Under the pieces are notes generated by a model that was not told where the DNA came from, ran no database searches, and saw only the letters and a program-made list of their open reading frames with translations. Of a stretch of DNA of 49,109 nucleotides, positions 1,580 to 48,897 are shown in pieces (the stretch's first letter is position 1; each line of letters starts with the position of its first letter). The translations under genes were made by a program, and so were the position numbers. The DNA lies in NCBI GenBank assembly GCA_031274255.1, contig JAISQK010000268.1, positions 1 through 49,109 on the forward strand, given 5' to 3'. This DNA is from Planctomycetaceae bacterium (GTDB lineage Bacteria > Planctomycetota > Planctomycetia > Pirellulales > Thermoguttaceae).

Positions 1580-2719
1580 TCAATCCCGCTGATTGACTCT
1601 CTTGTAATCGTCCGCAACTTCAGGAACCGGCTCATAGAGTTTGCATTCCTCGGCGGTTTTCGGAGGATTGAGCGGTCGGAGGACACGAAAACCGACATAC
1701 GGGGCTTCCGTCACCCACCAGATGCTCTTCGGGAATTGCGGGTCTTGAAGTTTCCAGTCCTCGGTCGTAATGTTCCGCGAGGCACTGCGGCACTCATCAG
1801 GAAATTGATCACAGGAACCGCCGCGGGCGATTTCGTCGCGTCCTTTGGAAACCGTCATCATTTTGATCGTTTCCGGCATGTAAAACGGTGTCTTGATTTT
1901 GCCGTCCTTATACTGCTGGTACAAATTCTCTGTGTTGCGGCCGAGCACCCATTCGGAAACATTGCCGTGCATGTCGTAAAGTCCCCAGGGATTCGGCTTT
2001 TTCGTCATCACCTGATGGTAGCTTCCGTCCGCATTGTCCAGATGCCAGGCGTAATCGTCCACTTGGGAAACGTCATCCCCGCTGGAAAATGCGGTTTTCG
2101 TTCCCGCGCGGCACGCATATTCCCATTCCGCCTCGGTCGGAAGCCGGTAGTAGCGTCCTGTGACCGCCGTGAGCCACTTGCAGTAGGACTGGGCACTGTA
2201 ATTGGTCATTCCGCTGGCCGGAAAATTCGGCTTGCTGGAATTTCCGTAACTCAGCGATGTGATGTCATAAGCCGGCGTCGGTGCCGCAAGAGCGTCCGCG
2301 GTGCGTTCGTTGACATTTTTCTCGCCGTCCGCCTTGCTTTTCCGGCTTTCACGGAGAATTTTGTATGCGAACTGCATGAACTCCCCCCATGTCACTTCAT
2401 GTTCTTCGATCCAGAACGGCTCGACTTCCACTTCGATTTGCGGTCCTTCCTCATCGGCGCGACCCTCTTCCGATTCGGGACTTCCCATCAGAAACTTGCC
2501 TCCTTTGATCGGAATCATTTTGAACTTCAATTCCGTACCGAAAATCTGCTCTTCGTACGGTTTCATTTCACTTTCGGACGCTGCCTGAGAATCCTCCACC
2601 GGAATCGGGTTTTTGAGGAATTCAATTCCCGGAGCGTGAGTCAAATCGGCAGTTTGGGCAAACGCTGCGGCACCGAGAACGGTCACACCACACGCAACAC
2701 GGACAAAAAAACGCTTCAT
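1580..2719 (-). CDS. formylglycine-generating enzyme (FGE/SUMF1) family protein, secreted
   Basis: An N-terminal signal peptide is present (MKRFFVRVACGVTVLGAAAFA). FGE-domain motifs present are TEAEWEYACRAG, MHGNVSEWV and RGGSC. The 389-aa antisense ORF at 1736-2905 is an R/F-rich shadow ORF. Confidence 0.85.
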   Translation of the reverse strand: MKRFFVRVACGVTVLGAAAFAQTADLTHAPGIEFLKNPIPVEDSQAASESEMKPYEEQIFGTELKFKMIPIKGGKFLMGSPESEEGRADEEGPQIEVEVEPFWIEEHEVTWGEFMQFAYKILRESRKSKADGEKNVNERTADALAAPTPAYDITSLSYGNSSKPNFPASGMTNYSAQSYCKWLTAVTGRYYRLPTEAEWEYACRAGTKTAFSSGDDVSQVDDYAWHLDNADGSYHQVMTKKPNPWGLYDMHGNVSEWVLGRNTENLYQQYKDGKIKTPFYMPETIKMMTVSKGRDEIARGGSCDQFPDECRSASRNITTEDWKLQDPQFPKSIWWVTEAPYVGFRVLRPLNPPKTAEECKLYEPVPEVADDYKRVNQRD

Positions 2720-3014: not shown

Positions 3015-3836
3015 ATGAGACCGAATAAGACGCTTTGGTTTTTTATCCTGTTTTTCCTCAGCCTTTGTTTCCTGATCCTGTATTCCCCTGTCGGCTTTTC
3101 ACAAGACAACGATATTATGAACGAAATCAACGCGGAAGCCGCAAAAGCGGAAGCCTCTGCCGAGACGATGCCCGCGTCGGAAAACAGTGAGACCGCCGCA
3201 CCGGAAAAGAAAGTTTACCTCATCTGGATGGTGCAGTCGCTCGGATGGTTTTTTACGCCGGTTTTTATGATAATCTCCATGAGCATGGTTACGCTGGTTG
3301 TAATGAATTTCCTTGCCGTCCGGCAGCAGAATTTCGCTCCGAAAAGTTTTGTCGGTCAGTTTGGGGAATACCTTGACGCAAAACAGTTTCAGGACGCCTA
3401 CGAGTACGCCCGATCGGGGGACTGTATGATTGCCAAAGTCCTCACGGTCGGACTTGCCAAACTTTCCAGCGGTTACAAGGAAGCGGAAAACGCCATGCAG
3501 GCGATCGGTGAGGAGGAAACCTTAAAGCATGAACAGCGGCTGAGTTATATCGCCCTGATCGGCAAGATTTCTCCGATGATCGGACTTTTCGGCACGGTCG
3601 TAGGAATGATCGCCTCGTTCAACACGCTTGCGTCAAGTGCGGGGCAGCCTCCGGTCAACAAATTGGCGGAAGGGATTGCCACTGCACTGTTTACAACGGA
3701 AATCGGTCTGGCGATTGCGATTCCGGCATTGGTTGTTTACGAGATTTTGCGGAACCGGCTGACAAAAAACCTTTTGGATGTGAGTCTCATTACAGAAAGT
3801 CTGATGAGCCGTTTTTCCGGTGTGTCGGCAAAGTAG
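3015..3836 (+). CDS. exbB: MotA/TolQ/ExbB proton-channel family protein
   Basis: The C-terminal region carries the family motif ISPMIGLFGTVVGMIASFNTL...TALFTTEIGLAIAIPALVVYEIL. There are three predicted TM segments. ExbD genes follow immediately. Confidence 0.85.
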   Translation: MRPNKTLWFFILFFLSLCFLILYSPVGFSQDNDIMNEINAEAAKAEASAETMPASENSETAAPEKKVYLIWMVQSLGWFFTPVFMIISMSMVTLVVMNFLAVRQQNFAPKSFVGQFGEYLDAKQFQDAYEYARSGDCMIAKVLTVGLAKLSSGYKEAENAMQAIGEEETLKHEQRLSYIALIGKISPMIGLFGTVVGMIASFNTLASSAGQPPVNKLAEGIATALFTTEIGLAIAIPALVVYEILRNRLTKNLLDVSLITESLMSRFSGVSAK

Positions 3837-3846
3837 GAACAGTAAA

Positions 3847-4293
3847 ATGCGATTCAACCGAACAACCGTTTCCAACATGGAACTCGACATGACACCGATG
3901 ATTGACATCGTGTTTTTGCTCATCACGTTTTTCATGTTTGTGTTCAATTTCAGTCAGGCCGACCAGAATGAGCGGATCAAACTCCCGTCAAGTGAATTGG
4001 CGAAAATTTCAGAGGTGAGCGACACGGAATTTTTGACGCTTCAACTGACGGCGGAAGAGACCATTCTTTTCGGCCGGGAGGAGTTTGCGTTTGACGAACT
4101 CAAGCGTCTGTTGTCCAGGGAATTGAAACTGTTCGAGGCACTCGGCACCGACAAATCGAAAGTCCGCGTCCTCATTCGGGCCGACGCGAGGTCGCAAACC
4201 GGCAAACTTCAGGACATCATGGCGGAATGCCGCCGTTGCGGTCTGGAGAATTTCGGCCTTCCTGTCATAATTGATACGCCGGGGGCCATATAA
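3847..4293 (+). CDS. exbD: ExbD/TolR biopolymer transport protein
   Basis: The ExbD signature (E)LDMTPMIDIVFLLITFFM is present. An RBS aggaa lies upstream of the ATG at 3847. The gene is co-directional with exbB. Confidence 0.8.
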   Translation: MRFNRTTVSNMELDMTPMIDIVFLLITFFMFVFNFSQADQNERIKLPSSELAKISEVSDTEFLTLQLTAEETILFGREEFAFDELKRLLSRELKLFEALGTDKSKVRVLIRADARSQTGKLQDIMAECRRCGLENFGLPVIIDTPGAI

Positions 4294-4306
4294 CGATGAG
4301 GAAAAA

Positions 4307-4816
4307 ATGATGAAAAGACCTCATGCCGCCGTTTCGCTGGATTGGGACATGACACCGATGATTGATGTCGTCTTTCTGTTGATGATTTTTTTCGTGTTCA
4401 CGTTTAAAATCGTCAAGCAGGAGGGGGATTTTTCGATAAAAATGCCGCTTTCCGGCGGAAACAGTTCCTCGTTGAGTCTCGACACTTCCGAACCGGTCCG
4501 CATCCGGCTTTTGGCCGACAGCAACGGGGAACTCGCGTCAATCATGATGGGAGACCGGTCGCTCGGCACGAGTTTTACAATACTCCGGCAACAAGTGATG
4601 GCGTATGTCGGATCGCTTTCACCGCAGGCACGCGGCGAGGCCGAGGCGGAACTCCGTTGCGATTATGAGTTGAAATACAAGTACACGGTGGACGCGATGA
4701 CCGCGATTTCCGGATACTATGAAAACGGTCAGATTGTGCCGCTGATTGAAAAGGTCAAGTTTGCCCAAAAACAGGGACAATCAGATTTAACAGAATCATC
4801 AAATGAAGAAAAATAA
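4307..4816 (+). CDS. exbD: ExbD/TolR biopolymer transport protein, second paralog
   Basis: The motif LDWDMTPMIDVVFLLMIFFVF is present. An RBS gagga lies 5 nt before the ATG at 4307. Confidence 0.8.
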   Translation: MMKRPHAAVSLDWDMTPMIDVVFLLMIFFVFTFKIVKQEGDFSIKMPLSGGNSSSLSLDTSEPVRIRLLADSNGELASIMMGDRSLGTSFTILRQQVMAYVGSLSPQARGEAEAELRCDYELKYKYTVDAMTAISGYYENGQIVPLIEKVKFAQKQGQSDLTESSNEEK

Positions 4817-29271: not shown

Positions 29272-30024
29272 ATGGCAAAGCGTCCCGATCATCGCGGCAT
29301 TATTGATTTGCGTCCGATCCGCATGGAACGGTCGTTTCCAACGGCGGCACCGGGAAGTGTTTTACTCTCTGCGGGGGGGACAGTTGTTTTGTGTACGGCG
29401 AGTATCACGGAAAGTTTGCCTCCATGGATGAAAGCCGCAACGAAAGAGCAGGACACTGTTTCCGGTTGGCTTACTGCGGAATATCGGATGCACCCGGCCA
29501 GTACGAGTCCCCGTTCGGAACGGCGTGACCGTCCGGACGGCCGCGCAACGGAAATCCAGCGGCTCATCGGGCGGAGTCTTCGTGCCGTGGTCGATTTGGA
29601 ACTTCTCGGGCCTCGTACTGTGGCAATTGATTGCGATGTTCTCAAAGCGGACGGCGGAACCCGGACATTGAGTATCACAGGAGCGTTCATTGCTCTTGTT
29701 GAGGCGGTCGTTTCGTGGAATGAAAATTCGCCTTATGAAATTCCGCTGCCGTTTCTCAAGGATTCCGTCGCGGCGGTCAGTGTCGGGATACTGGCGGGCG
29801 AACCGCGGATCGACCTTTGTTATCTCGAAGATGTTGACGCGGAAGTCGATATGAATGTTGTAATGACAGGCACGGGACGTTTCGTGGAAATTCAAGGCAC
29901 CGGTGAAGAGGCCACATTTTCCGAGTCGGAATTGCACGAAATGCTCCGGCTGGCCAAACTTGGAATTTCCCGACTGACGCAGCTTCAAAAAGAGACACTC
30001 GGAACTCTCTGGCGGTTCGGATGA
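29272..30024 (+). CDS. rph: ribonuclease PH
   Basis: The product is full-length RNase PH (RPDHRGIIDLRPIRMER...DCDVLKADGGTRT...). Confidence 0.9.
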   Translation: MAKRPDHRGIIDLRPIRMERSFPTAAPGSVLLSAGGTVVLCTASITESLPPWMKAATKEQDTVSGWLTAEYRMHPASTSPRSERRDRPDGRATEIQRLIGRSLRAVVDLELLGPRTVAIDCDVLKADGGTRTLSITGAFIALVEAVVSWNENSPYEIPLPFLKDSVAAVSVGILAGEPRIDLCYLEDVDAEVDMNVVMTGTGRFVEIQGTGEEATFSESELHEMLRLAKLGISRLTQLQKETLGTLWRFG

Positions 30025-30259: not shown

Positions 30260-32221
30260 ATGAGGAATCACTGCCGTTTTTTTGCTGTTCTCGGACTGTT
30301 TTTTGCGATGTCCCCTTTAGCGGCGGAGACGACGGATTCCCCCCCGCGTGTCTTTTACCCGTGTACGACCTTTTATGCCTGCCGTGCCGAACTATGGGAA
30401 AAATCCGGACCGTTGATGTATGGTTTTATCGGAAATCCCGACCCGGAACATCCCCTTCCCGAGGATGTCGCTAGGGATTGGCCGATTATCGGAGGAACAT
30501 TCACCGACGGCGACGAACTGTACGGAATCGTTGTATTGTTTCTGGATTCACCGCGGATTGACGAGGAGAAATTCAAAAGGCAACTGCTGGCCAATACCTT
30601 TTTTGAGTCGTTTTTCCCCGACAGACAGGTGGCGATTCATCATGGGAATCCTTTTCATATTCCCGAGGGTCCGCGCGGAGTCGCTATCGTGATTTCTGAA
30701 AAAGCGGTTGATTTTTTGTCACTGAAAAACATGACAAATGAAGAGCCCGCGGACTATTTGATTCAAATGATTGGGGAACTGTTCGCGCAAAGAAAAGATT
30801 ACATTGAATCGCGAAGTTATGTCGGAATGCTTCGCGAGTTCCCCGAACCTCAACTTTATCCGGTATTGCCGCCGGAAAACATGACAAGTGAAAAGCTCTC
30901 TGCGTATTTGATTCAAATGATTGGGGAACCGTTCGCGCAAAGAAAAGATTACATTGAGTCGCGATGTTATGCCGGAATACTTCACGAGTTCCCCGAACAT
31001 CAACTTTATCCGGTATTGCCGCCGGAAACGGAAAATGAAGGTACCTTTCTTCGGAAGGTTCGTGAATATCGTGCCGGACACAATGACATTGACAAGATAA
31101 ACGCGACTTTTTGGGGACTCAAGTGGACGGAAACGGACATCGAATTGGTATGGGACCGTTTCGTCGAAGAAGGAACTCCGGCAGCCGAAACCTATCGAAA
31201 CCGGAATACCGGCAAGCCGTTTCAATTGGGAGGTTTTTTCGATGAAGACACTTCCGGCGGAGCGTTTCGTCTGTATCCCAAAGACATTTCGGAAGACAAA
31301 TTTTTCCTGCAATGCGGAACGACGATCATTCCCACGGAAGAGAGAGAGGAAGATGACCGCATTTATACGATGCGGATAGGTTTCTTGTTCAGCAAGACTC
31401 CGTCGCAAGAGTATAACCCTATCGTTGAAGAAGGGATATTTGTTTTGAACACTGTTTACCAGCCGGAAAATCTTCCCGAAGAAAAAGGGGTTCCCGACGC
31501 GGAAACGATGGATGAAATCAATCATGACTTTGTGGAGAGTTTCCACCCGTTGATTCAGAACATCGTTTCCCAATCCGCGGAAATGGAACAAGACGCACCA
31601 TTGGATTTCGCAGTGAAACAGCAGGGAGACATTTTTCTCGCGGCCTGTGCGTTGCCGCCGGGCGGAAAACCTATCGACTGGAAGCTGGCGGAAAACATCA
31701 TTCCTGCAGTGAGAAAGATGTTTGAACACACACCCAATCCCTATAAGAATAAAGATCCAAAAGAACAATCGGAGGTCTTGGAATCCTGGATCATTTCTCT
31801 GTTTTCCCTCTCCGAAAATGGCGAAAACCGCGACGGCATGGATTTTTCGGAGTTTTTCATCAACATTGGCGAACAATCGGCTCATGTGGTGTTCGGATAC
31901 AAACCGGACCTCCTTTGTGCCGCCGCCACGATCGGAGAATTTGACGAAACCGCCAAACAGTTTCGTGACGAATCGCACACATTCGAGGAAATGGTCGGTC
32001 TGCTGCAAGAGTGTATTGAGGCGTCGCAACGATTGGAAACGGAGAAAATGCCTGTCCCGCAAATTGTTTATCAGCATAAAATCGACGGTCGTGACAACCG
32101 TGACATCCTGTTAACGAACGAAACCGCAGAGGGACATACGAAATACACACTGACCGTCACCGGTGAGGCGATTGGTCCGGCGATACAGATTGCGAAAATG
32201 TTCCTGCCGTCACCGCGGTAG
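30260..32221 (+). CDS. secreted hypothetical protein (653 aa) with internal 50-aa tandem duplication
   Basis: A signal peptide MRNHCRFFAVLGLFFAMSPLAAE is present. The antisense 452-aa ORF at 30719-32077 is an R/F-rich shadow ORF. The duplicated segment is NMT(N/S)E...YLIQMIGE(L/P)FAQRKDYIESR. Confidence 0.6.
   Translation: MRNHCRFFAVLGLFFAMSPLAAETTDSPPRVFYPCTTFYACRAELWEKSGPLMYGFIGNPDPEHPLPEDVARDWPIIGGTFTDGDELYGIVVLFLDSPRIDEEKFKRQLLANTFFESFFPDRQVAIHHGNPFHIPEGPRGVAIVISEKAVDFLSLKNMTNEEPADYLIQMIGELFAQRKDYIESRSYVGMLREFPEPQLYPVLPPENMTSEKLSAYLIQMIGEPFAQRKDYIESRCYAGILHEFPEHQLYPVLPPETENEGTFLRKVREYRAGHNDIDKINATFWGLKWTETDIELVWDRFVEEGTPAAETYRNRNTGKPFQLGGFFDEDTSGGAFRLYPKDISEDKFFLQCGTTIIPTEEREEDDRIYTMRIGFLFSKTPSQEYNPIVEEGIFVLNTVYQPENLPEEKGVPDAETMDEINHDFVESFHPLIQNIVSQSAEMEQDAPLDFAVKQQGDIFLAACALPPGGKPIDWKLAENIIPAVRKMFEHTPNPYKNKDPKEQSEVLESWIISLFSLSENGENRDGMDFSEFFINIGEQSAHVVFGYKPDLLCAAATIGEFDETAKQFRDESHTFEEMVGLLQECIEASQRLETEKMPVPQIVYQHKIDGRDNRDILLTNETAEGHTKYTLTVTGEAIGPAIQIAKMFLPSPR
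30724..31029 (+). repeat. perfect-period 150-bp tandem duplication (2 units) inside a CDS
   Basis: Unit 1 starts at atgacaaatg (30731) and unit 2 at atgacaagtg (30881). The units are about 90% identical and preserve the reading frame. Confidence 0.85.
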
Positions 32222-37068: not shown

Positions 37069-39810
37069 TCATTCCCCCCCTTTGATTTGACATTTGAGGG
37101 TTCGTTCGCCGCGGATTTCACGGGCAACAATCCGAATCGGTTTGCCGGTGAGTTCGCGTCCGTTCTCGATAAAATACGTGTTTTCACGGTGTCCGGTTCC
37201 CTGTTTGGAAATGATGATCCGCTGAATCGGACGGTCGGGAGCATACATCGAACATGAAAAACTGACTTCATCGGCACTGTTATTCGTAAAGGTCTGATAA
37301 ATTTCCAGTTGACCGCGGCGGTTCAAACGGGAAACGGCTTCAATGGTGATTTCGTTCGTGCCGACCTGAATTTCCTGATACACGCTGAAATGCTGCTCCT
37401 CCCAGTCTTCAAGAAAAACATTCATCTCCAACATACCGGAGCCGCTCATCGCGGAAGGGGTTAACATCAATGAGATGTTTTCCTCGTGCGTCTCGCCGGG
37501 TAAAATGGAAAAATGAAAATCTTCCGGCTCCACCAAAATTCCTTCAGGAGGCTGGATTCCTATTTTACCGAAAACCGTCACCGGAAAAGGATTCGTGATC
37601 GTGATTTTGTCGGGATGTTTGACACTGTATTTTTCCGGGAGGATTCCATTTTGCAATCGGGTGTTTTGCCGGATTTTTGTGATTTTCGGCTCGGCGTCCG
37701 TCACGAAAACCGGAATCTGTCCCGCGTTCACCGTCTGATGAAATTCCGTAAACGGTGCCGGAATTTCTTTTCCCCAAACATCCATGAGTTTTGCCCGGCT
37801 GCCGAAATTCATCATTTCCTGAACCGGAGCATTGTTCCAGATCATGTAAACATCTCCCAGCCCTTTCGGGTCGGAGAAGCAGAAATTCCGGCTCCCTTTT
37901 GGCATTCCGATGGACGGCACGGGAATTTTTCCGCCGATGAGCGTCGCGGTGGTTCGCCACGGAAGAAACAATTCCGTCGGCGTTTGGTCCTCTTGATACA
38001 ATCCTGACTGATTATTGATAGGCATGGAAAAAAACGCGGCCTCCGCTCCCTGTTTTCGAACGGTTCCCATCCGCAAAACCAGATCGGTCACCCTTTCCGT
38101 CAGCGGATAACGGTCCGATGGCAAGGGGGTCATGTCGGGAAAACAGCGGAAATCCGAAATGGGCACCACGTCGAGATAGTATTCCAAATCCTCCCATGTG
38201 AGCGGAAAATCATTCGTCAATGAGACAAAATTTTTACGGTTTCCGGTCTGTTTTTGAGAAAGTTCATTCGGTAAAGGATGCATCCAGTCCCAGGGAACTC
38301 CCAACGTGACATCCAAACCGCTTTGATCCAATTGCTGTTGAAAGTCGCCGATAAACCGGTCAAAGATTCCTGATTTCTGGATGGAGCGGTCGTGGTCTTC
38401 TCCCAACTGCCAGTCCGTAATAATCATTCCCAAATTGAGAAGGTTCCTTTCAAGGGAAGGGTACCACACGGAAAACGGCAGTGAAAAAATGCCGGCCGCA
38501 CCGTCATTTTGCTTCACCATGGTCGTAATCTCTTGCGGAGGGTGACTCAAAACACCAATCGGCCGAATCCGTCGGTCCGCCAGCCAGGTACAAAAGTCGA
38601 TGATTTCCGCAATATCCGTTTGTTTGGAATCCTTCGGGAGCCAGACCGGAATTTTGATTTGTCTCGCCCCGCTTTTTTCGATCATCGGTTTGAGAGTTTT
38701 GAGTTCCGCAAGACTCCACTTTCCCGGAAATGAAAGCCCGAACATTCCTGCGGGATCGGAAGGAAGCGGACCAAGAATCACAAACGATGTTTCGCCGAAA
38801 GCGTCTGTTGAAATCTTTCCTGAAGCGGGAACCGTTGCCGGGACGGAAACTCTCAAACGGTAATACCCTGCCGACGGTTGAAAGGGGATTTCCCAGTGAA
38901 ACGCGAAATGAACGGCTTCAGGAGCATCTTCCCGGGGCACACCGGTTTTTTGCGGCGAAAGCGAATGCGGAACCTCCTTTTTTTGCGGAATAAGTGTTTG
39001 CTTCTCCGAAACCAGTTCTTCTCCGAAAGGATTGAAAAGTGAAATCGTCGCCGGATCGCCGGAAGGAGAAACCATCGAAACCGTACCGTCAATCACAACA
39101 GACACGGAAGGGTCGAGTGTATTCCATGGACCGGGGGGTTGAAACTGAACTGTCGGCTGTTCGGAAATCTGCACTTGGGAAAACGCGACCGTACCGCGGA
39201 CATCCTGTTCGTCGTCAAACGGCGTAACATGCAATCCCAGGACAACACCGCGGGAATCAGAATGACTGGCAATTAATGGCGGCGTCACAAGCTGATACCA
39301 GCCGTTTGTGTTGCCGACAGGTTCGGAAAACACGGTTTGGAGAATCATTCCTGTTTCATCCAGCAACGAAAGGGAAATAAAGGTTTTATCATGCGTCAGA
39401 TCATTCGCAAAAACCGAGACCCCCGCGGAATACGTCATGTTACGGCAAACGGCGAGTTGAGGGGAAAAAACGGCGGCACTTCCCCGTTGAATCCGTATCC
39501 GGTAAAACTGGTTTCCCATGAGAGAACGTTGATGAACGATTCCCATTTCGAGATATTGCGGATATCCGGCTCCCTGATAACGCCGCCAGCCGTCCGGCTG
39601 ATCGTTTTTGTTGAGATCATGTTCCGGTCCGAAGATTGTACGGAAAATCGCTCCCGTCGGTGACATTCTCGCCATGGTGTCGGTGGTGATCCGGTCCAGC
39701 GGCATCACCGGTTTTCCCGTTGGTTCTGCTTCCGGGGAATCGGCTCCCCTTACGGCAATCCCGCCGATTCCAAGACAGATCACGACACTCACAAGACGGA
39801 AAATATCCAT
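37069..39810 (-). CDS. large secreted hypothetical protein (913 aa)
   Basis: A signal peptide is present and the ORF has coding-like composition. I did not recognise any domain. Confidence 0.55.
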   Translation of the reverse strand: MDIFRLVSVVICLGIGGIAVRGADSPEAEPTGKPVMPLDRITTDTMARMSPTGAIFRTIFGPEHDLNKNDQPDGWRRYQGAGYPQYLEMGIVHQRSLMGNQFYRIRIQRGSAAVFSPQLAVCRNMTYSAGVSVFANDLTHDKTFISLSLLDETGMILQTVFSEPVGNTNGWYQLVTPPLIASHSDSRGVVLGLHVTPFDDEQDVRGTVAFSQVQISEQPTVQFQPPGPWNTLDPSVSVVIDGTVSMVSPSGDPATISLFNPFGEELVSEKQTLIPQKKEVPHSLSPQKTGVPREDAPEAVHFAFHWEIPFQPSAGYYRLRVSVPATVPASGKISTDAFGETSFVILGPLPSDPAGMFGLSFPGKWSLAELKTLKPMIEKSGARQIKIPVWLPKDSKQTDIAEIIDFCTWLADRRIRPIGVLSHPPQEITTMVKQNDGAAGIFSLPFSVWYPSLERNLLNLGMIITDWQLGEDHDRSIQKSGIFDRFIGDFQQQLDQSGLDVTLGVPWDWMHPLPNELSQKQTGNRKNFVSLTNDFPLTWEDLEYYLDVVPISDFRCFPDMTPLPSDRYPLTERVTDLVLRMGTVRKQGAEAAFFSMPINNQSGLYQEDQTPTELFLPWRTTATLIGGKIPVPSIGMPKGSRNFCFSDPKGLGDVYMIWNNAPVQEMMNFGSRAKLMDVWGKEIPAPFTEFHQTVNAGQIPVFVTDAEPKITKIRQNTRLQNGILPEKYSVKHPDKITITNPFPVTVFGKIGIQPPEGILVEPEDFHFSILPGETHEENISLMLTPSAMSGSGMLEMNVFLEDWEEQHFSVYQEIQVGTNEITIEAVSRLNRRGQLEIYQTFTNNSADEVSFSCSMYAPDRPIQRIIISKQGTGHRENTYFIENGRELTGKPIRIVAREIRGERTLKCQIKGGE

Positions 39811-40509: not shown

Positions 40510-40597
40510 GGCACTGCCTTTTACTGGTTCTGTTCCATTATTACAGCCAACATAAAATTGAACTTGTCCGGTGAACCGCCGGTGTTCCGTATTCCGC

Positions 40598-41659
40598 TCA
40601 GAAGATGAAATTCTGACCGGCATTAAGGCAGTTTCGCGGATCACCTCCCATGTGCCGGATGCCGTTCACTGTGATGATCCGTCCGCGAGGCGTGCGGACC
40701 AGAAGCTCACTCCGCAGCAGAAACGGCTCGACTTCATCAATGAGCGTATCCGCCGCAACATTCATTGTGTGAGCCACCGCTTCGACACCGACCGGACCGC
40801 CCTGAAAAACGCGGAGAATCGTGTCGAGGTATTTACGGTCCTGGGCATCAAGCCCGACAATATCGACTCCTGCCATTTCGAGAGCTTTTTTCGCAATATC
40901 CAAAGTAATACGGCCGTCCTCACGAGCGTCCGTGTAATCACGTACCCAACGGAGTCTGTTATTGGCCAGTCTCGGGGTTCCGCGGCTCCGCGATGCGATT
41001 TCATGGGACGCCTCATTCGTAATTTCGACATTCAGCTTGTCGGAATTACGGTGGATAATCTCGGAAAGCTCCTCATTCGTGTAAAAATCAAGGTGTTCCC
41101 GCATTTGAAAACGGTCACGCAACGGTGCCGAAATCAGTCCCGTCCGCGTGGTCGCTCCAATCAGCGTGAACGGCTTGAGATGGATATTCAGCGTGCGTGC
41201 GTTGACCCCTTCGCCGAGTGTCAGATCAATCCGAAAATCCTCCATGGCCGGATACAAAAATTCCTCGACCGCTTTCTGCATCCGGTGAATTTCGTCGATG
41301 AAAAGCACCGACCCTTCCTCGGCATTTGTCAGATACGGCACCAGATCTTTCGGCGCACGAAGCGTCGCCCCGTTTCCGATCTGAAAAGGGACCCCCAGTT
41401 CCCGCGGAATGCACATGGCAAAGGTCGTTTTTCCCAGTCCCGGCGGACCGTCGAAAAGGATATGTCCGAGCGGTTCCTTTCGTTTTCGTGCCGCCTGAAT
41501 CGCGATTTCAATCCGGTCATAGACATCCCGTTGGCCGACCATTTCGAACATCCGCTGCGGACGAAGCGCACGTTCCTCGTCAAGAGTCAGTTCGACCTTG
41601 TTTTCCGGGGGCATTTCCGGCGGCTCAACATCGGGGCCGAATATCGCTTCTCTTGGCAC
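40598..41659 (-). CDS. ruvB: Holliday junction branch migration helicase RuvB
   Basis: The Walker A motif GPPGLGKTT is present. RuvB sensor motifs and a C-terminal winged helix are present. No ruvA is adjacent. Confidence 0.95.
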   Translation of the reverse strand: MPREAIFGPDVEPPEMPPENKVELTLDEERALRPQRMFEMVGQRDVYDRIEIAIQAARKRKEPLGHILFDGPPGLGKTTFAMCIPRELGVPFQIGNGATLRAPKDLVPYLTNAEEGSVLFIDEIHRMQKAVEEFLYPAMEDFRIDLTLGEGVNARTLNIHLKPFTLIGATTRTGLISAPLRDRFQMREHLDFYTNEELSEIIHRNSDKLNVEITNEASHEIASRSRGTPRLANNRLRWVRDYTDAREDGRITLDIAKKALEMAGVDIVGLDAQDRKYLDTILRVFQGGPVGVEAVAHTMNVAADTLIDEVEPFLLRSELLVRTPRGRIITVNGIRHMGGDPRNCLNAGQNFIF

Positions 41660-41725
41660 TATTTTATCACCTTAATCTCACCGTTCATTAAAATCATTTT
41701 GCCTGAAAGAGGAAAAGCGGTTCAC

Positions 41726-42628
41726 TCATTCCTCCTCAAAAAAGTCATAATCCATCCGCTTGATTTCATAAGACGCAACGGTGGTAACTCCCAAATTGTA
41801 GTCAATCATCAATTGCATCAATTCCGTACCATCAATCAATACTATTTTCGTATCATTATGGGGTTGGTATTTCCTCGCGTCCTCCGTAAATGTGGAAGTG
41901 GTAATGAAAACACCTTTTTTTGCCCCATGACCCGCAAGTGCCCCAACAAATTTTTGGATTTCAGGACGGCCAATCGAAGAATCTTTCCAACGTTTGGCCT
42001 GAAGATAAACGACATCAAGACCGAGTTTGTCTTCCTTGATAATACCGTCAATTCCACCGTCTCCCGACTGTCCCACCGCTTTTCCTGCATCTTCCATTGA
42101 ACCGCCGTACCCCATCCGCACAAGGAGTTTGACCACAAGACGTTCGAAGAAATCCGATTTTTTGGCATGAATTTGACTCAGTAATTCATCTGCCAGTGCC
42201 TGACGCAATATTTCATAATTCTCATCAATCACTTCTTCCGGTGCCGCAGCTTTTTCATCACCGTCAATTGCCGCATTCTCGTTTTCATTCTTTTTTCCAG
42301 AAACAATGTATTCAGAAAATCTCTTCAAGTATTTAATATCGATGGAGTCCGGTTTTTCTTTGAGAATATCCAAACCTCTTTTTGTGATTTTGACGTATCC
42401 TTTCTCCGGTGTTTCAATCACTGAAACTCTTTTAAAATAAGAACGAACCCAATCAACATTATTTCCGAATCTCTTTCCACCGCTTTTCAACCGCTCGTTT
42501 TTTTCCGCTTCGGTTAATTGAAAGTGTTCTGCCAATGTTTCTTTGATGTCACTGGCCTTGTGAAGTTTATTATCTCCAATAATTTTCAGAAAAGGCAAAA
42601 AACATTCTTGAAATTCCGGTACCGGCAT
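41726..42628 (-). CDS. mrr: Mrr-family type IV (modification-dependent) restriction endonuclease
   Basis: The Mrr_cat motifs are present (GQSGDGGIDGIIKEDKLGLDVVYLQAKRW...IDGTELMQLMIDYNLGV). An N-terminal winged-helix Mrr_N-like region is present. Confidence 0.85.
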   Translation of the reverse strand: MPVPEFQECFLPFLKIIGDNKLHKASDIKETLAEHFQLTEAEKNERLKSGGKRFGNNVDWVRSYFKRVSVIETPEKGYVKITKRGLDILKEKPDSIDIKYLKRFSEYIVSGKKNENENAAIDGDEKAAAPEEVIDENYEILRQALADELLSQIHAKKSDFFERLVVKLLVRMGYGGSMEDAGKAVGQSGDGGIDGIIKEDKLGLDVVYLQAKRWKDSSIGRPEIQKFVGALAGHGAKKGVFITTSTFTEDARKYQPHNDTKIVLIDGTELMQLMIDYNLGVTTVASYEIKRMDYDFFEEE

Positions 42629-44078: not shown

Positions 44079-45359
44079 GTGGGATTTTTTACGGAACATT
44101 TTTCGATACTTCCGGTCATGGGGGCGACGCTTCTTCTTTCGATGTTTTTCTCGATGTGCGAGACGACGTTTTTCACGCTTTCCCCCGCCGAACGCCGACG
44201 CATGAAACACGGCAACCGTTTTCAGCGGCTCGCGGTACGGCTGGCGGAAAATTCGGAAGCGATTTTGCCGGCGATTCTCTTTTGGAACCTGTCGGTGAAT
44301 CTCCTCACTTTTGCCCTGTCGACGATTCTGAGTTTGCAGCTTCAAAAAGCGAACCATCCGACGCAGGCAGGTCTTGCGGCCGTTACGGTATTGGTCATTG
44401 TGGTGGTGTTTTGCGAAATTCTCCCGAAGAATCTCGGCGTTCTGTTTCCGCGATTTTTTGCGATACTGCTTGCGCCGCCTCTTTCATTTGCGGTACGGCT
44501 GGCAAAACCGATTCTCCCGTTTCTCAACGGGGTCAACATTTTGACGCGGCGGCTCTTTTTTCCGAATTTTCAGCCGGAACCGTTTCTTCAAATCAGTGAT
44601 CTCGAAAAACTGGTGGAACTTTCGCAAAAAGACGCCACACTCCTTAAGCGGGAACAGCGTGTGCTGCAAAGCATTGTCCATCTTTCCGAAGTCACCGCGG
44701 AAGAACTGATGCGTCCGCGGAAAATGCTGAAGCTCTACAAACCGCCGCTCACCTTTGCGGCACTGCTCAAGGAACCGCCGGCCGGGGATTATATTTTCAT
44801 CACCGAGCCGGACACGGATGAAATCGCCGCCGCCGTTTCCCTCCGTCACTATAAGATTCCTCCTGACACGGCGGATCAGGACACGGCGGTCTGGGAGGCC
44901 AATACCGTTCCGGTGGTGTATGTTCCGTGGTCAATGAAGCTGGCCGGCGTGCTGGAAGTTCTGCAAAAGCAACACCGCGACATCGCCGCTGTACTCAACG
45001 AATACGGGGAGACCGTCGGTGTCATTTCGATTCAAGACTTGACGTATTTCCTTTTTGCGATGGTTCCAAGCCGGACACGTTTGCTGCTGAAGCGTTCCTC
45101 ACTTCGGAAAACAGGTCCCGGTCACTGGCAGGTTTCGGGAATCACGAATCTTCGGCGTCTGAAACGCTATTTTGCACTGGCTTCGCTGCCGCCGTGTGAC
45201 GCGCTGACCGTCGCGGGGGTCCTCCAGGAGGAACTGCAGCGGATGCCGGAAACCGGTGATGTGTGTTGCTGGGGACCGTTTCAGATGACCGTACTGGACC
45301 AGTCGCAGGAAGAAGGCATGAAGGTGGACATCCAACTGAAAAAGGAGGTCCGGGCATAA
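44079..45359 (+). CDS. hemolysin/CNNM family protein (DUF21 + CBS pair + CorC_HlyC)
   Basis: An N-terminal multi-TM DUF21 domain is present, with a CBS pair (E(E)LMRPR...) and a C-terminal transporter-associated domain. The overlapping ORF at 43919-44599 is rejected. Confidence 0.8.
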   Translation: MGFFTEHFSILPVMGATLLLSMFFSMCETTFFTLSPAERRRMKHGNRFQRLAVRLAENSEAILPAILFWNLSVNLLTFALSTILSLQLQKANHPTQAGLAAVTVLVIVVVFCEILPKNLGVLFPRFFAILLAPPLSFAVRLAKPILPFLNGVNILTRRLFFPNFQPEPFLQISDLEKLVELSQKDATLLKREQRVLQSIVHLSEVTAEELMRPRKMLKLYKPPLTFAALLKEPPAGDYIFITEPDTDEIAAAVSLRHYKIPPDTADQDTAVWEANTVPVVYVPWSMKLAGVLEVLQKQHRDIAAVLNEYGETVGVISIQDLTYFLFAMVPSRTRLLLKRSSLRKTGPGHWQVSGITNLRRLKRYFALASLPPCDALTVAGVLQEELQRMPETGDVCCWGPFQMTVLDQSQEEGMKVDIQLKKEVRA

Positions 45360-46379
45360 ATGGCAACGGCTCTGATTTTACTTGTTCTCGGCTTTGTTCA
45401 CAGTGCCGTGTTCAGCGGCACGGAAACCGGATACTACCGTGTTTCGCGCATTCGGATTCTGGTGGACGCCGTTTCGGGAAAACGTGCGGCGAAGATGATT
45501 CTTTGGCTTATCAATCGTCCGTCGGTGTTCATCGCAACGATTCTGATCGGGAACAACATCGCCAACAATATCGTTTCGACGGGCGGAATCCTTCTTGTGC
45601 AAACCTTTTTTGTCACCGGAAACCACACCGGCGACATCATGGCGACCGTGTTACTGACACCGTTTCTTTTTGTGTTGGGAGAAATGTTCCCGAAATATCT
45701 GGCACTTCACGCCCCTTACCAATTTCTGCGGCGGGTCTGTCCGTTGTTTTTGCTCTACGTGATTCTTTTTCTGCCTGCTTCGATGCTGATCGGGTTTTTC
45801 AACCGGATGCTTTCTTCGCTTCTGCATGGAAAACACGAGGAATGGCGGATGATTCTCGCCCGAAAGGAACTGTCCCGCGGTTTTGACGAAGGGGAATACG
45901 CCGGAGTCTTGTTCTCCGTGCAGCGGGAGTTGACGAAAAATGTTTTTGCGGCGGCGCGTCAGTCGATCCGTCCGTTTGCCAGACCGCTTGACGCCTTCCC
46001 GCGTCTTACGCAGAGCATGCCGCCGGAGACGCTCCTTGCCGAAGCGAAAAAACACGGACTTTGCGAGTTTCCGGTCTTTTCCGAAAATCCTCTTGACGAG
46101 CCAGTCGGTTATCTCAGAACATTTGAACTTCAGCTTGCCGCCGTCCGGGCGAAAGACAAGCCGGTGCCGCTTCCGATTCGCTCTTTGGAATCTTTTGAGG
46201 AGTCGCATTCTCCGCTGAATGCGTTGCTGCTTTTCCAGTCCACCGGGGAATCGCTTGCGTGTCTGGAATCCGAGGACGGTGAAATCACGGGCTTGATTTC
46301 GGTCTCGGAACTGCGAAAAACGATGTTTTCGACAGAGAGTTTTCCCCCGCCAACCAACGCGAGGGCATTGGATCCCTGA
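45360..46379 (+). CDS. DUF21/CNNM-family membrane protein with CBS domain (paralog)
   Basis: The ATG at 45360 directly follows the TAA of the preceding paralog. A DUF21-like TM region and CBS-like C-terminus are present. Confidence 0.7.
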   Translation: MATALILLVLGFVHSAVFSGTETGYYRVSRIRILVDAVSGKRAAKMILWLINRPSVFIATILIGNNIANNIVSTGGILLVQTFFVTGNHTGDIMATVLLTPFLFVLGEMFPKYLALHAPYQFLRRVCPLFLLYVILFLPASMLIGFFNRMLSSLLHGKHEEWRMILARKELSRGFDEGEYAGVLFSVQRELTKNVFAAARQSIRPFARPLDAFPRLTQSMPPETLLAEAKKHGLCEFPVFSENPLDEPVGYLRTFELQLAAVRAKDKPVPLPIRSLESFEESHSPLNALLLFQSTGESLACLESEDGEITGLISVSELRKTMFSTESFPPPTNARALDP

Positions 46380-47028: not shown

Positions 47029-47532
47029 TTATTTGTACTCTTCAAGATTAACACTCAGACCGGTTTGTTTTCCGGCAACGTCAATTTTTAGCGGAGTGGT
47101 GTCGGTTTTTGTCAGCTTCGGGGGAATCATTTTGGGAAGGGCAGCCTGCCTGTTTTTCATTTGTTTTGTGTATTCATTCAGTTGGGGTTGAGTCATGGCG
47201 TGCCGCTCCTCCTCGGTTTTAGTATGTTCCACAAAGGGCTCTTTCACAAGAATGACTTTGTAAGTTCCTTCGGGAACGCCGGGTTTCGAGTAACTTGCAT
47301 AAGTTGTTCTGACCTGACAGACTCCGGTAGAGTCCGTTTTGCCGAAAAAGACAATGCTGTCAACCGGCGTGACCGGTTTCAGGGAGACTTCCACATCGGC
47401 AACGGGTGTCGTTCCCCGAAGAACAATGATCTGACACGGAACAACTTTGGGAAAACCTTTCGGCGAGTCCGAACAACCGCAGAATGAAAGGGATAACAAA
47501 CACGTCAACAAAACAAAAAAACGTTCAGGCAT
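47029..47532 (-). CDS. small lipoprotein (hypothetical)
   Basis: A signal peptide plus lipobox is present (LLTCLLSLSFCGCSD). It lies directly downstream of the DUF1559 gene, which is the usual pairing in PVC genomes. Confidence 0.55.
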   Translation of the reverse strand: MPERFFVLLTCLLSLSFCGCSDSPKGFPKVVPCQIIVLRGTTPVADVEVSLKPVTPVDSIVFFGKTDSTGVCQVRTTYASYSKPGVPEGTYKVILVKEPFVEHTKTEEERHAMTQPQLNEYTKQMKNRQAALPKMIPPKLTKTDTTPLKIDVAGKQTGLSVNLEEYK

Positions 47533-47645
47533 CAAAAGTTTCCTTTTCCGAAAAAAAAATAAGCAAATCGGGACGGACATAAAAAGTACCCCGATGATGT
47601 CCGTCCTTTTGTAAAAATTTTGCGGTATTCGCCCCGTTACGGGTC

Positions 47646-48815
47646 TTACAAACCCCCGGCACTTTCACCGCCCGCAATCGTTCCGTAAGCTCCCCAGACG
47701 CCGAACGGACTTGATCCGGCAAATTCATGTTCTGATTTGGGGTAAGTGTTATCATCCGGTTTTCCTTGTTTTGCCCAAGTGGTATTATCAAAATCAATGT
47801 CCTGATTCGATCCCCAGTTCACTGTGTCGGAAACGAACTGAACAGAACCGTCAACCAGTCCGCCATTGGCACCGCCGGTGTGATGACTGCTTGCACTCAT
47901 GATGCCATAATACCAACCTGATTGGTTAAAACTGCTGGCAGTCGCATTTCCTGAGGGGGAGTTCGGGGGAAGAATGGTGTGAAATCCGGTGATGGTACAG
48001 TTCCCTTCCGCATAATTCTGTCCGCGTCCAAACTGAGTGACGCTGTAACTTGAGGCATAAACACTGCGGTTTTGGGGATCAATGCGGCTTAAAAGAGCGG
48101 ACGGAACTTTGGAGTCAATCTGGACAATTCCTCCTTTGACATTCCGGCTGTTTGTTCCGCTGGTGGTTACCGCTTCGGAAAACGCAATGGTATTGAACGT
48201 TCCATCCGTGATACCTCCGAAAGTCCTGAAACGCGGCATCTCTTTTCGTGAGGGGCCGTACAGCGGTCCGCTGAAGAAACCGCGGTTATTCGGAGTGGAC
48301 TGATCACATCCCTGGATCGCATCGGCATAACATCCCATGTAATTGGTGCGGGTGGAATTATTCCGGTCCGTAAAAGGAATTTTGACGTTGGAATCCGAAG
48401 GACAGGCAAGATACGAAATGGACGCATTGTACGCCCCGCTGGTATTTGCTTGTGCATCGGGAAAACCGCTTGCTTGAATGCGCTCATAAAGAGCATTCTG
48501 TTCCGCATACGGCAACATCGCGACATGGAAACTGATCCAGCCCCAGCCTGTTCCGAATCCGCATTTTGACGCGGGAAAAGCACCATTGGCATCGTGATAA
48601 GTGTGCAACGCCAAAGAAATTTGTTTGAGATGGTTGGTACACTGCATCCGCCTTGCGGCTTCGCGGGCGGCTTGAACCGCAGGTAAAAGAAGAGCAATCA
48701 AAATACCGATGATTGCAATCACCACAAGACGCTTCACAACGGTGAAAGCCTTATTATAACGACACAGACAGCCCCCCCCCCCCCCTATTTTAACATTTTC
48801 TAACAGCTTTTTCAT
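47646..48815 (-). CDS. DUF1559 / prepilin-type N-terminal cleavage-methylation domain protein
   Basis: The pilin-like N-terminus reads AFTVVKRLVVIAIIGILIALLLPAVQAAREAARRMQCTNHLKQISLALHTYHD, the hallmark of the PVC DUF1559 family. A strong RBS gaggag lies before the ATG at 48815. Codons 11-15 (GGGGG) are encoded by a G14 homopolymer. Confidence 0.85.
   Translation of the reverse strand: MKKLLENVKIGGGGGCLCRYNKAFTVVKRLVVIAIIGILIALLLPAVQAAREAARRMQCTNHLKQISLALHTYHDANGAFPASKCGFGTGWGWISFHVAMLPYAEQNALYERIQASGFPDAQANTSGAYNASISYLACPSDSNVKIPFTDRNNSTRTNYMGCYADAIQGCDQSTPNNRGFFSGPLYGPSRKEMPRFRTFGGITDGTFNTIAFSEAVTTSGTNSRNVKGGIVQIDSKVPSALLSRIDPQNRSVYASSYSVTQFGRGQNYAEGNCTITGFHTILPPNSPSGNATASSFNQSGWYYGIMSASSHHTGGANGGLVDGSVQFVSDTVNWGSNQDIDFDNTTWAKQGKPDDNTYPKSEHEFAGSSPFGVWGAYGTIAGGESAGGL
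48772..48785. repeat. homopolymeric C14 (G14 on the coding strand) tract inside the 5' end of the DUF1559 gene
   Basis: Fourteen consecutive C at 48772-48785 encode GGGGG. Tract lengths of 13 or 15 place stops within ~15 codons. Confidence 0.9.
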
Positions 48816-48868
48816 AAAAAACTCCTCACAAAGTAAATTTGATTGTAAAATCGTAACATCAGAGATTC

Positions 48869-48897
48869 ATATTAATCAAAAGAGAAAGAAAAGTCAA
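48869..48897 (-). promoter_or_regulatory. near-consensus sigma70 promoter for the DUF1559 gene
   Basis: The minus strand reads TTGACT (48897-48892), a 17-nt spacer, then TAATAT (48874-48869). This lies ~55 nt upstream of the ATG. The surrounding upstream region is pyrimidine-rich. Confidence 0.5.

Follow-up and report, generated by a model that had tools for sequence, protein, structure and literature searches.

A homopolymeric G tract as a probable phase-variation switch in the leader codons of a planctomycete DUF1559 prepilin-type gene

A run of 14 G's lies in the leader codons of a DUF1559/H-X9-DG prepilin-type gene on the minus strand (ORF 47646-48815) of the DNA analysed here, a complete contig of 49,109 nt (hereafter the window) from a metagenome-assembled genome (MAG) deposited as 'Planctomycetaceae bacterium'; the gene product, MDR1959754.1, is found on this one contig. 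We consider this tract most likely to be a hypermutable simple-sequence repeat, that is, a contingency locus, and we put the probability that it places the gene under slipped-strand ON/OFF control at roughly 80%. In the mechanism that we envisage, slipped-strand mispairing at replication would add or remove G's; only lengths of 14 ± 3k keep the ATG nearest the Shine-Dalgarno sequence (at 48815) in frame with the pilin-like domain, and at any other length translation ends after 18-27 codons and yields no pseudopilin-like protein. The allele assembled in the window is an ON allele. Slipped-strand phase variation had been predicted in an initial annotation made from the letters of the window, and it gains support from the comparison of homologous loci, in which the position of the tract is conserved, its length varies, and ON and OFF alleles coexist. 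The tract belongs to a conserved 5' cassette (Shine-Dalgarno sequence, ATG, 5-9 codons, AATGTTAAAnT, G(n), a few codons and [GA]/FTLVELL, where the slash marks the cleavage site) that is common to many DUF1559 paralogs of animal-gut Planctomycetaceae/Thermoguttaceae and to at least one OmpL-like porin gene. Which of these envelope proteins a given cell line expresses would then probably be decided stochastically, in a way that is both heritable and reversible.

The G14 tract and the gene that carries it

The tract reads as C14 on the plus strand and as G14 on the coding strand at 48772-48785, and it begins at nt 31 of the ORF, after 30 nt counted from the ATG (48815-48813). The initial annotation had the run and its distance from the start right, as both the letters and the ORF confirm, and erred in placing it in codons 10-15, since a tract that starts at nt 31 occupies codons 11-15. 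It had also called homopolymers of this length rare outside contingency loci. There is no other G or C run of more than 7 nt in the window (the next longest are 7 nt, as at 29373-29379, 30339-30345 and 37074-37080), and dinucleotide shuffles give a chance expectation of 0.09 runs of G10 or longer per window. Tract length sets the reading frame as annotated. When it was changed in silico, G11, G14 and G17 gave the full-length protein (389 aa for the ORF as assembled), and G13 and G15 gave peptides of 26 and 20 aa, respectively. Two marks of contingency loci are present, namely a long homopolymer in the 5' coding region whose length decides the frame, the other frames soon running into stops, and a tract far above compositional expectation, such tracts being concentrated in particular genes (below). 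The features of the gene are as follows.

48822..48827, minus strand: Shine-Dalgarno-like GAGGAG, 6 nt 5' of the ATG
48747..48815, minus strand: leader-peptide coding region, M1-A23 (MKKLLENVKIGGGGGCLCRYNKA), with the predicted prepilin-peptidase site A23/F24
48787..48797, minus strand: conserved 5' flank of the tract, AATGTTAAAAT, which contains the extended -10-like TGtTAAAAT
48772..48785, minus strand: G14 homopolymer, codons 11-15, proposed slipped-strand switch, assembled in the ON state
47646..48746, minus strand: mature DUF1559/H-X9-DG pseudopilin-like protein and stop codon (DUF1559 at aa 48-333, H-X9-DG at aa 308-329)

The annotated ribosome binding site GAGGAG is present next to the start, and AAGGAG or GGAG followed by ATG stands at the same place in most homologous loci. 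The description of the gene as a DUF1559 prepilin-like gene also stands, as the protein matches PF07596 (2.8e-45; 155.9 bits against a cut-off of 23.3; residues 48-333) and, over residues 308-329 (SSHHTGGANGGLVDGSVQF), the H-X9-DG model TIGR04294 (30.8 bits against a cut-off of 19). Structure prediction returned a confident model with a pilin-like fold, and the globular domain of about 300 aa had no significant Foldseek match in the PDB. The nearest ortholog is 64% identical over 94% of the window protein. No protein family is known to be more expanded in Planctomycetes than DUF1559, and we know of no function for its members; the papers found on DUF1559 yielded no experimental localisation. 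A surface-exposed or envelope-associated product is suggested by its pilin-like leader, helix and fold, by a lipoprotein-like partner gene, and by the occurrence of the same cassette on an OmpL-like porin (both below).

Within the N-terminus, F24 corresponds in alignment to the first residue of mature type IV pilins and of GspG, and the predicted cleavage site is A23/F24 (NKA/FTVV) rather than K/AFTVV as annotated. The initial annotation further took the residues around the tract to be atypical of the family. The NVK-Gn leader is in fact the common type in the gut clade; among the 120 best homologs, about 35 have leaders of the form ...NVK[MLI]GGGG..RA/FTLVELL. The atypical part is what follows the cleavage site, A/FTVVKRLVV (F24-V32, 48720-48746, minus strand), which differs by L3V, E5K and L6R from the FTLVELLVV present in 118 of the 120 homologs and in P0070, a paralog in the same MAG. 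The window protein departs in this way from the canonical motif [GA]/FTL[VI]ELLVV with Glu at +5 and has no PF07963 N_methyl match, unlike most homologs; the A/F site and the hydrophobic helix are retained, as are the other invariant residues of the family. Glu5 is important for pilin assembly, and its loss means that the function of the window protein may have changed. The two basic residues before the hydrophobic helix make its N-terminus more like a Sec-type signal anchor.

Position, length and frame of the tract in homologous loci

Tracts were counted in 80 loci (373 kb) that were found through protein alone in species-representative genomes, mostly MAGs of termite-gut and ruminant-gut Planctomycetaceae/Thermoguttaceae. 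These contain 54 G runs of at least 9 nt, of which 44 lie on the sense strand no more than 220 nt 5' of a prepilin cleavage site; among the other ten, two belong to the same cassette and eight are poly-G junk at contig ends. Tracts are carried by 44-46 of the 99 prepilin-type genes (about 45%) and range from G9 to G16, with a mode at G12. Loci from free-living lineages (Blastopirellula, Kolteria, Roseimaritima, Pirellulaceae) had no tract among those scanned. Under slipped-strand control, a hypermutable tract on nearly half of the gut-lineage members would indicate proteins that are exposed, individually dispensable and under fluctuating selection, and we infer that the selective agent is phage, host or substrate.

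Comparison with orthologs and paralogs, which the initial annotation had named as a check, finds the tract at the same leader position, at differing lengths and at no fixed one. Orthologs with 58-64% identity have G10 (L001), G12 (L002) and G12 (L003) there. In a fourth, L004, a G12 tract throws the ATG out of frame, and the protein in GenBank, P0020, consequently starts at an internal TTG; out-of-frame tracts likewise account for the start of some database proteins 3' of the leader (P0020, P0128/P0131). Other orthologs, some close ones included, have interrupted tracts (GRLG, GHGGG, GWGG) or none. The tract is therefore not a fixed feature, and its interruptions and losses appear to be the gain, loss and locking expected of such repeats.

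Paralogs share the leader far more closely than the rest of the gene. In P0070 (accession MDR1959083, close to the window's MDR1959754) the leader is MKKLLENVKMGGGGCLCRSKAA/FTLVELL, with GGGG where the window protein has GGGGG; the first 60 residues of the two proteins are nearly identical (about 87% in the leader) and the remainder only about 35% identical. Tandem paralogs elsewhere have 5' cassettes that are 83-93% identical and gene bodies that are 48-52% identical. On contig Ga0099364_10012259 (L202; reverse strand, about 3117-4436) a leader cassette, ATG..AATGTTAAAATG-G12, precedes an OmpL-like beta-barrel porin (PF07642, 1.7e-35) with an ordinary Sec signal peptide, so the cassette is not limited to prepilin-type genes. 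A scan of metagenomes with the DNA pattern AATGTTAAANTNG8 found at least 120 contigs, mostly from JGI termite-gut samples, and the usual layout among the matches listed is Shine-Dalgarno sequence, ATG, 5-9 codons, the motif, G(n) and FTLVELL.

The DNA immediately 5' of the tract is itself conserved. Its consensus, AATGTTAAAnT, is kept at 70-80% per position in 26 sites that were found via protein and not via the motif. In 49 genes flank and tract together encode NVK[MLI]Gn, and in 29 they encode MLxWGn (among the matches listed); since two frames are used, the conserved object is the DNA and not a poly-Gly peptide. The flank has ATGs in two frames, and a promoter scan flags it as -10-like with an upstream TG (ATGAAA-17-TAAAAT). 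We did not adopt the ATG, TTG or CTG codon that abuts the tract as the true start, as CTG is frequent at that position.

Out-of-frame alleles are common among these loci. Among the protein-anchored sites, an upstream ATG is in frame at 25 and out of frame at 17, and 6 have only a GTG or TTG start; judged against the Shine-Dalgarno-proximal ATG, the in-frame sites number 36 and the out-of-frame sites 42 among the matches listed in L001-L204. The clearest polymorphism is at the P0069 locus of ruminant Thermoguttaceae, where nine contigs (L205-L213, a locus sampled in ERZ28653904, ERZ28018789, ERZ27256761 and ERZ28653896) with identical immediate flanks and DNA 94-100% identical to L209 have G7 (one contig), G10-T-G (one), G11 (two), G12 (four) and G13 (one). 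Over 4056 nt, two of them, L208 and L209, differ by one gap, which is the tract, and by no mismatch. N-termini within the P0069 cluster (at least 90% protein identity) differ correspondingly, from full length (MKNSLFVNLGGGGKQGKRG/FTL) through alternative starts (MLIWGGGG..., MLIWGG...) to proteins shortened to 325 aa or broken off at the tract. Two members of this cluster, P0125 and P0133, have a different leader without a tract (MQRFVNKRRG/FTL), which suggests replacement by recombination.

Elsewhere, P0034 and P0136 are the same gene in two frames, so their tracts are 1 nt apart, and L039 has G13 where L062, L058, L034 and L061 have G12 in near-identical surroundings. A search for near-identical flanks over all fetched loci returned one length-variant pair within the family (L039/L062) and two pairs from unrelated organisms. 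The latter are chance matches to the motif with 100% identical flanks, G8 versus G10 in L098/L174 and G9 versus G12 in L126/L203; in L126/L203 the tract stands at the start of an ORF (MLKWGG...) that looks by eye like a membrane acyltransferase. Homologs of the window gene thus show length polymorphism with ON and OFF alleles, as a hypermutable repeat does, and switching within one clone would probably be rapid and reversible.

G12 is the commonest length in both frame classes. The out-of-frame alleles are unevenly divided between the two remaining frames, with about 25 at ON-minus-1 and about 4 that are one nucleotide longer (among the matches listed in L001-L204). This skew could stem from slippage that favours deletion, from an equilibrium length, or from under-calling by one base as a systematic error.

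Slipped-strand switching and its alternatives

Several observations weigh against slipped-strand switching of the window gene. Collections hold one contig of the source organism, and variation at the window locus itself is presumed from that at its homologs. Illumina assemblies miscall long G runs, and some of the OFF calls could be technical, as could the skew toward ON-minus-1. Cassette sites with G10 or longer lie within 150 nt of a contig end in 37 of 94 cases (among the matches listed), with about 9 expected, and the sequence beyond the tract at those ends looks error-ridden. The changes L3V, E5K and L6R mean that the window product may not assemble like its relatives, and without Glu5 switching might have little phenotypic effect. 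Finally, simple slippage does not need the strong conservation of AATGTTAAAnT.

The excess of contig breaks was considered as evidence of tract-length heterogeneity and set aside as non-discriminating: poly-G degrades Illumina reads, and searching by motif skews the choice of the side from which a break is seen. At the contig ends of L008, L041 and L065, 13-94 nt of poly-G/poly-C junk stand beside DUF1559 genes. One of these, L065, was deposited as an Acetobacteraceae MAG, has a planctomycete-type DUF1559 gene, and is probably mis-binned.

A broader and more tentative proposal, which we regard as possible and somewhat short of an even chance, is that AATGTTAAAnT-G(9-16) is a portable switch cassette of animal-gut Planctomycetes whose flank is functional as DNA or RNA and whose outcome has three states. 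Such a cassette may have spread by duplication and gene conversion to dozens of envelope genes per genome, with DUF1559 pseudopilin-like proteins as its targets along with at least one OmpL-like porin. The flank may offer starts in two frames, or an extended -10-like element with an effect on how the polymerase pauses or slips, or both; the three states may be the frame of the Shine-Dalgarno-proximal ATG, the frame of an internal start, and OFF. If true, this would be the first phasome described in the PVC superphylum.

Among the alternatives to slipped-strand control of the window gene, the one that fares best, and which we nevertheless think unlikely, is that this copy is a decaying or neofunctionalised paralog in which the tract is still mutable and the switch has become a relic since the loss of Glu5. 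The near-invariance of FTLVELLVV in the homologs and in the same-MAG paralog, set against A/FTVVKRLVV here, favours this idea, as does the missing N_methyl match. Against it, the 389-codon ORF is intact and in frame, the identity to the nearest ortholog is still 64% with the other invariant residues kept, the pilin-like model is confident and the partner gene is conserved; the KR pair and hydrophobic segment could, moreover, still serve as a signal anchor.

We find it rather more doubtful that the tract acts mainly at the level of RNA or transcription, through polymerase pausing, initiation or stutter that gives mixed-frame mRNAs, or that it promotes G-quadruplex-driven recombination between paralogs. 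In the transcriptional version TGnTAAAnT would be an extended -10-like element, and the G run after it a GGG discriminator or the initially transcribed region. The retention of the flank as DNA in two reading frames is in keeping with this, as are the promoter-scan hit with its upstream TG and the fact that the genes are still intact although about half of the alleles put the Shine-Dalgarno-proximal ATG out of frame; the recombination version is compatible with the high identity of tandem-paralog cassettes relative to gene bodies, as gene conversion would produce. A transcript begun in the tract would, however, have no Shine-Dalgarno sequence or start codon before FTLVELL, no Rfam family or notable structure was found, and runs of G12-14 are too short for a stable three-tetrad quadruplex. 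Heritable differences in DNA length are seen directly, and so transcriptional effects would be at most an added layer on slipped-strand switching.

That the run encodes a stable, functional poly-glycine stretch of the leader, its length differences being ordinary divergence, is very improbable. Many homologs do encode ...NVK[ML]GGGGN[LV]RA/FTL, and Gly-rich leaders persist in the interrupted versions. The glycine codons of the tract are, however, all GGG, the same DNA occurs in a second frame as M-L-N/K-W-Gn, out-of-frame alleles are common, and near-identical contigs differ in tract length alone, including by non-multiples of three. Least probable of all is an error of sequencing or assembly, such as a poly-G read tail or chimeric join, that created the tract or its exact length. 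True poly-G junk does occur at related contig ends, and assemblies often break near such tracts (the window tract is 324 nt from the contig end). This one, however, is internal and flanked on either side by coherent coding sequence, the leader 5' and the helix 3' of it both match the same-MAG paralog, and the same position and flanks recur in independent studies and hosts, which leaves only a length-call error of ±1 as possible.

Known phase-variable systems and the surroundings of the gene

Slipped-strand switching of this type is a mechanism of a known kind; the phylum and the gene family are new for it, and full-text literature searches turned up nothing that connects phase variation with Planctomycetes or DUF1559. 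In Neisseria, phase variation of pilC, pglA and lgtA is classically signalled by genic tracts of G9-G21 (PMC5953494), and the window gene resembles pilC1/pilC2 (and pglA, lgtA) in that G9-G20 tracts in the 5' coding region there, and G9-G16 tracts here, give ON/OFF frameshifts (PMC5953494), those here by prediction. Neisseria PilC is, unlike the proteins discussed here, a pilus-tip or retraction factor with a Sec signal, encoded in two copies; in the planctomycete case the tract lies in the class III (prepilin) leader of a pilin-fold protein with dozens of paralogs, next to a conserved flanking DNA motif, in termite-gut and ruminant-gut commensals of the Planctomycetota. Jonsson et al. (1991) reportedly placed the pilC tract in the signal-peptide region.

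Poly-G tracts also underlie phase variation in Campylobacter (PMC8355987). The phasomes of Campylobacter jejuni and Helicobacter offer a second likeness, with about 20-30 G/C loci per genome, mostly in surface-structure genes, ON/OFF mixtures within populations, and a gut-associated lifestyle common to both them and the bacteria studied here (PMC8355987, PMC2823697). Their tracts are shorter (G8-G13), are spread over unrelated genes and have no common flanking motif, whereas those described here concentrate at one position in one expanded family. Campylobacter and Helicobacter are not known to have MutS/MutL-type mismatch repair. In Bordetella fim and in Neisseria opc and porA a homopolymer likewise governs expression of a fimbrial or outer-membrane protein (PMC1891110, PMC3960869); those tracts alter -35/-10 spacing and give transcriptional volume control, whereas the present one is inside the ORF, 3' of the start codon. 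Compared with type II secretion pseudopilins and type IV pilins such as GspG, PilA and the minor pilins, the proteins here have the globular H-X9-DG domain of about 300 aa, and the window copy is without Glu5.

If the tracts act as we propose, classical contingency-locus biology, so far a matter of a few pathogens, would take in uncultured commensals of the termite and ruminant gut. The DUF1559 tracts would offer a concrete handle for experiments, and population dynamics could be followed by scoring their length states directly in metagenomes. They would also explain recurrent MAG artefacts, namely N-terminally truncated 'DUF1559' proteins and contig breaks.

Upstream of the gene and on its 3' side the following features were noted.

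48892..48897, minus strand: -35-like hexamer TTGACT (consensus match only)
48869..48874, minus strand: -10-like hexamer TAATAT, with a spacer of 17 nt to the -35-like TTGACT (consensus match only)
47571..47606, minus strand: 10-bp GC-rich hairpin (GGACGGACAU...AUGUCCGUCC) and U-rich stretch, between the two genes
47029..47532, minus strand: conserved partner gene, small and lipoprotein-like, 167 aa from the second ATG, with an invariant G-C lipobox

The promoter named in the initial annotation, TTGACT-17-TAATAT, is present, and its description as near-consensus and strongly supported was overstated: it agrees with the consensus at 9 of 12 positions, and such sites are not above chance (3 found, 2.4 in shuffles). 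The ortholog L002 has TTGACA-17-TAATAT at a comparable position, read by eye. The partner gene has no Pfam match and is 41-53% identical to the gene 3' of the orthologs in L001, L002 and L003; the mechanically called ORF, 47029-47580, probably begins at its second ATG (47532), which matches the 167-aa lipoprotein of the orthologs. The intergenic hairpin may serve to terminate or attenuate transcription after the DUF1559 gene. It overlaps, together with its U-run, the first ATG of the mechanically called partner ORF, and the whole 111-nt intergenic stretch folds with a weak z-score of -1.46. An Rfam scan found nothing real, and no second DUF1559 gene is present anywhere in the window. Several large ORFs (37069-39810, 40571-42100) are without a Pfam match, and the neighbours at 41726-42628 (minus strand), 1580-2719 (minus strand) and 44079-46379 (plus strand) include an Mrr-type restriction endonuclease, an FGE-sulfatase-family protein and two CNNM/CorC transporters.

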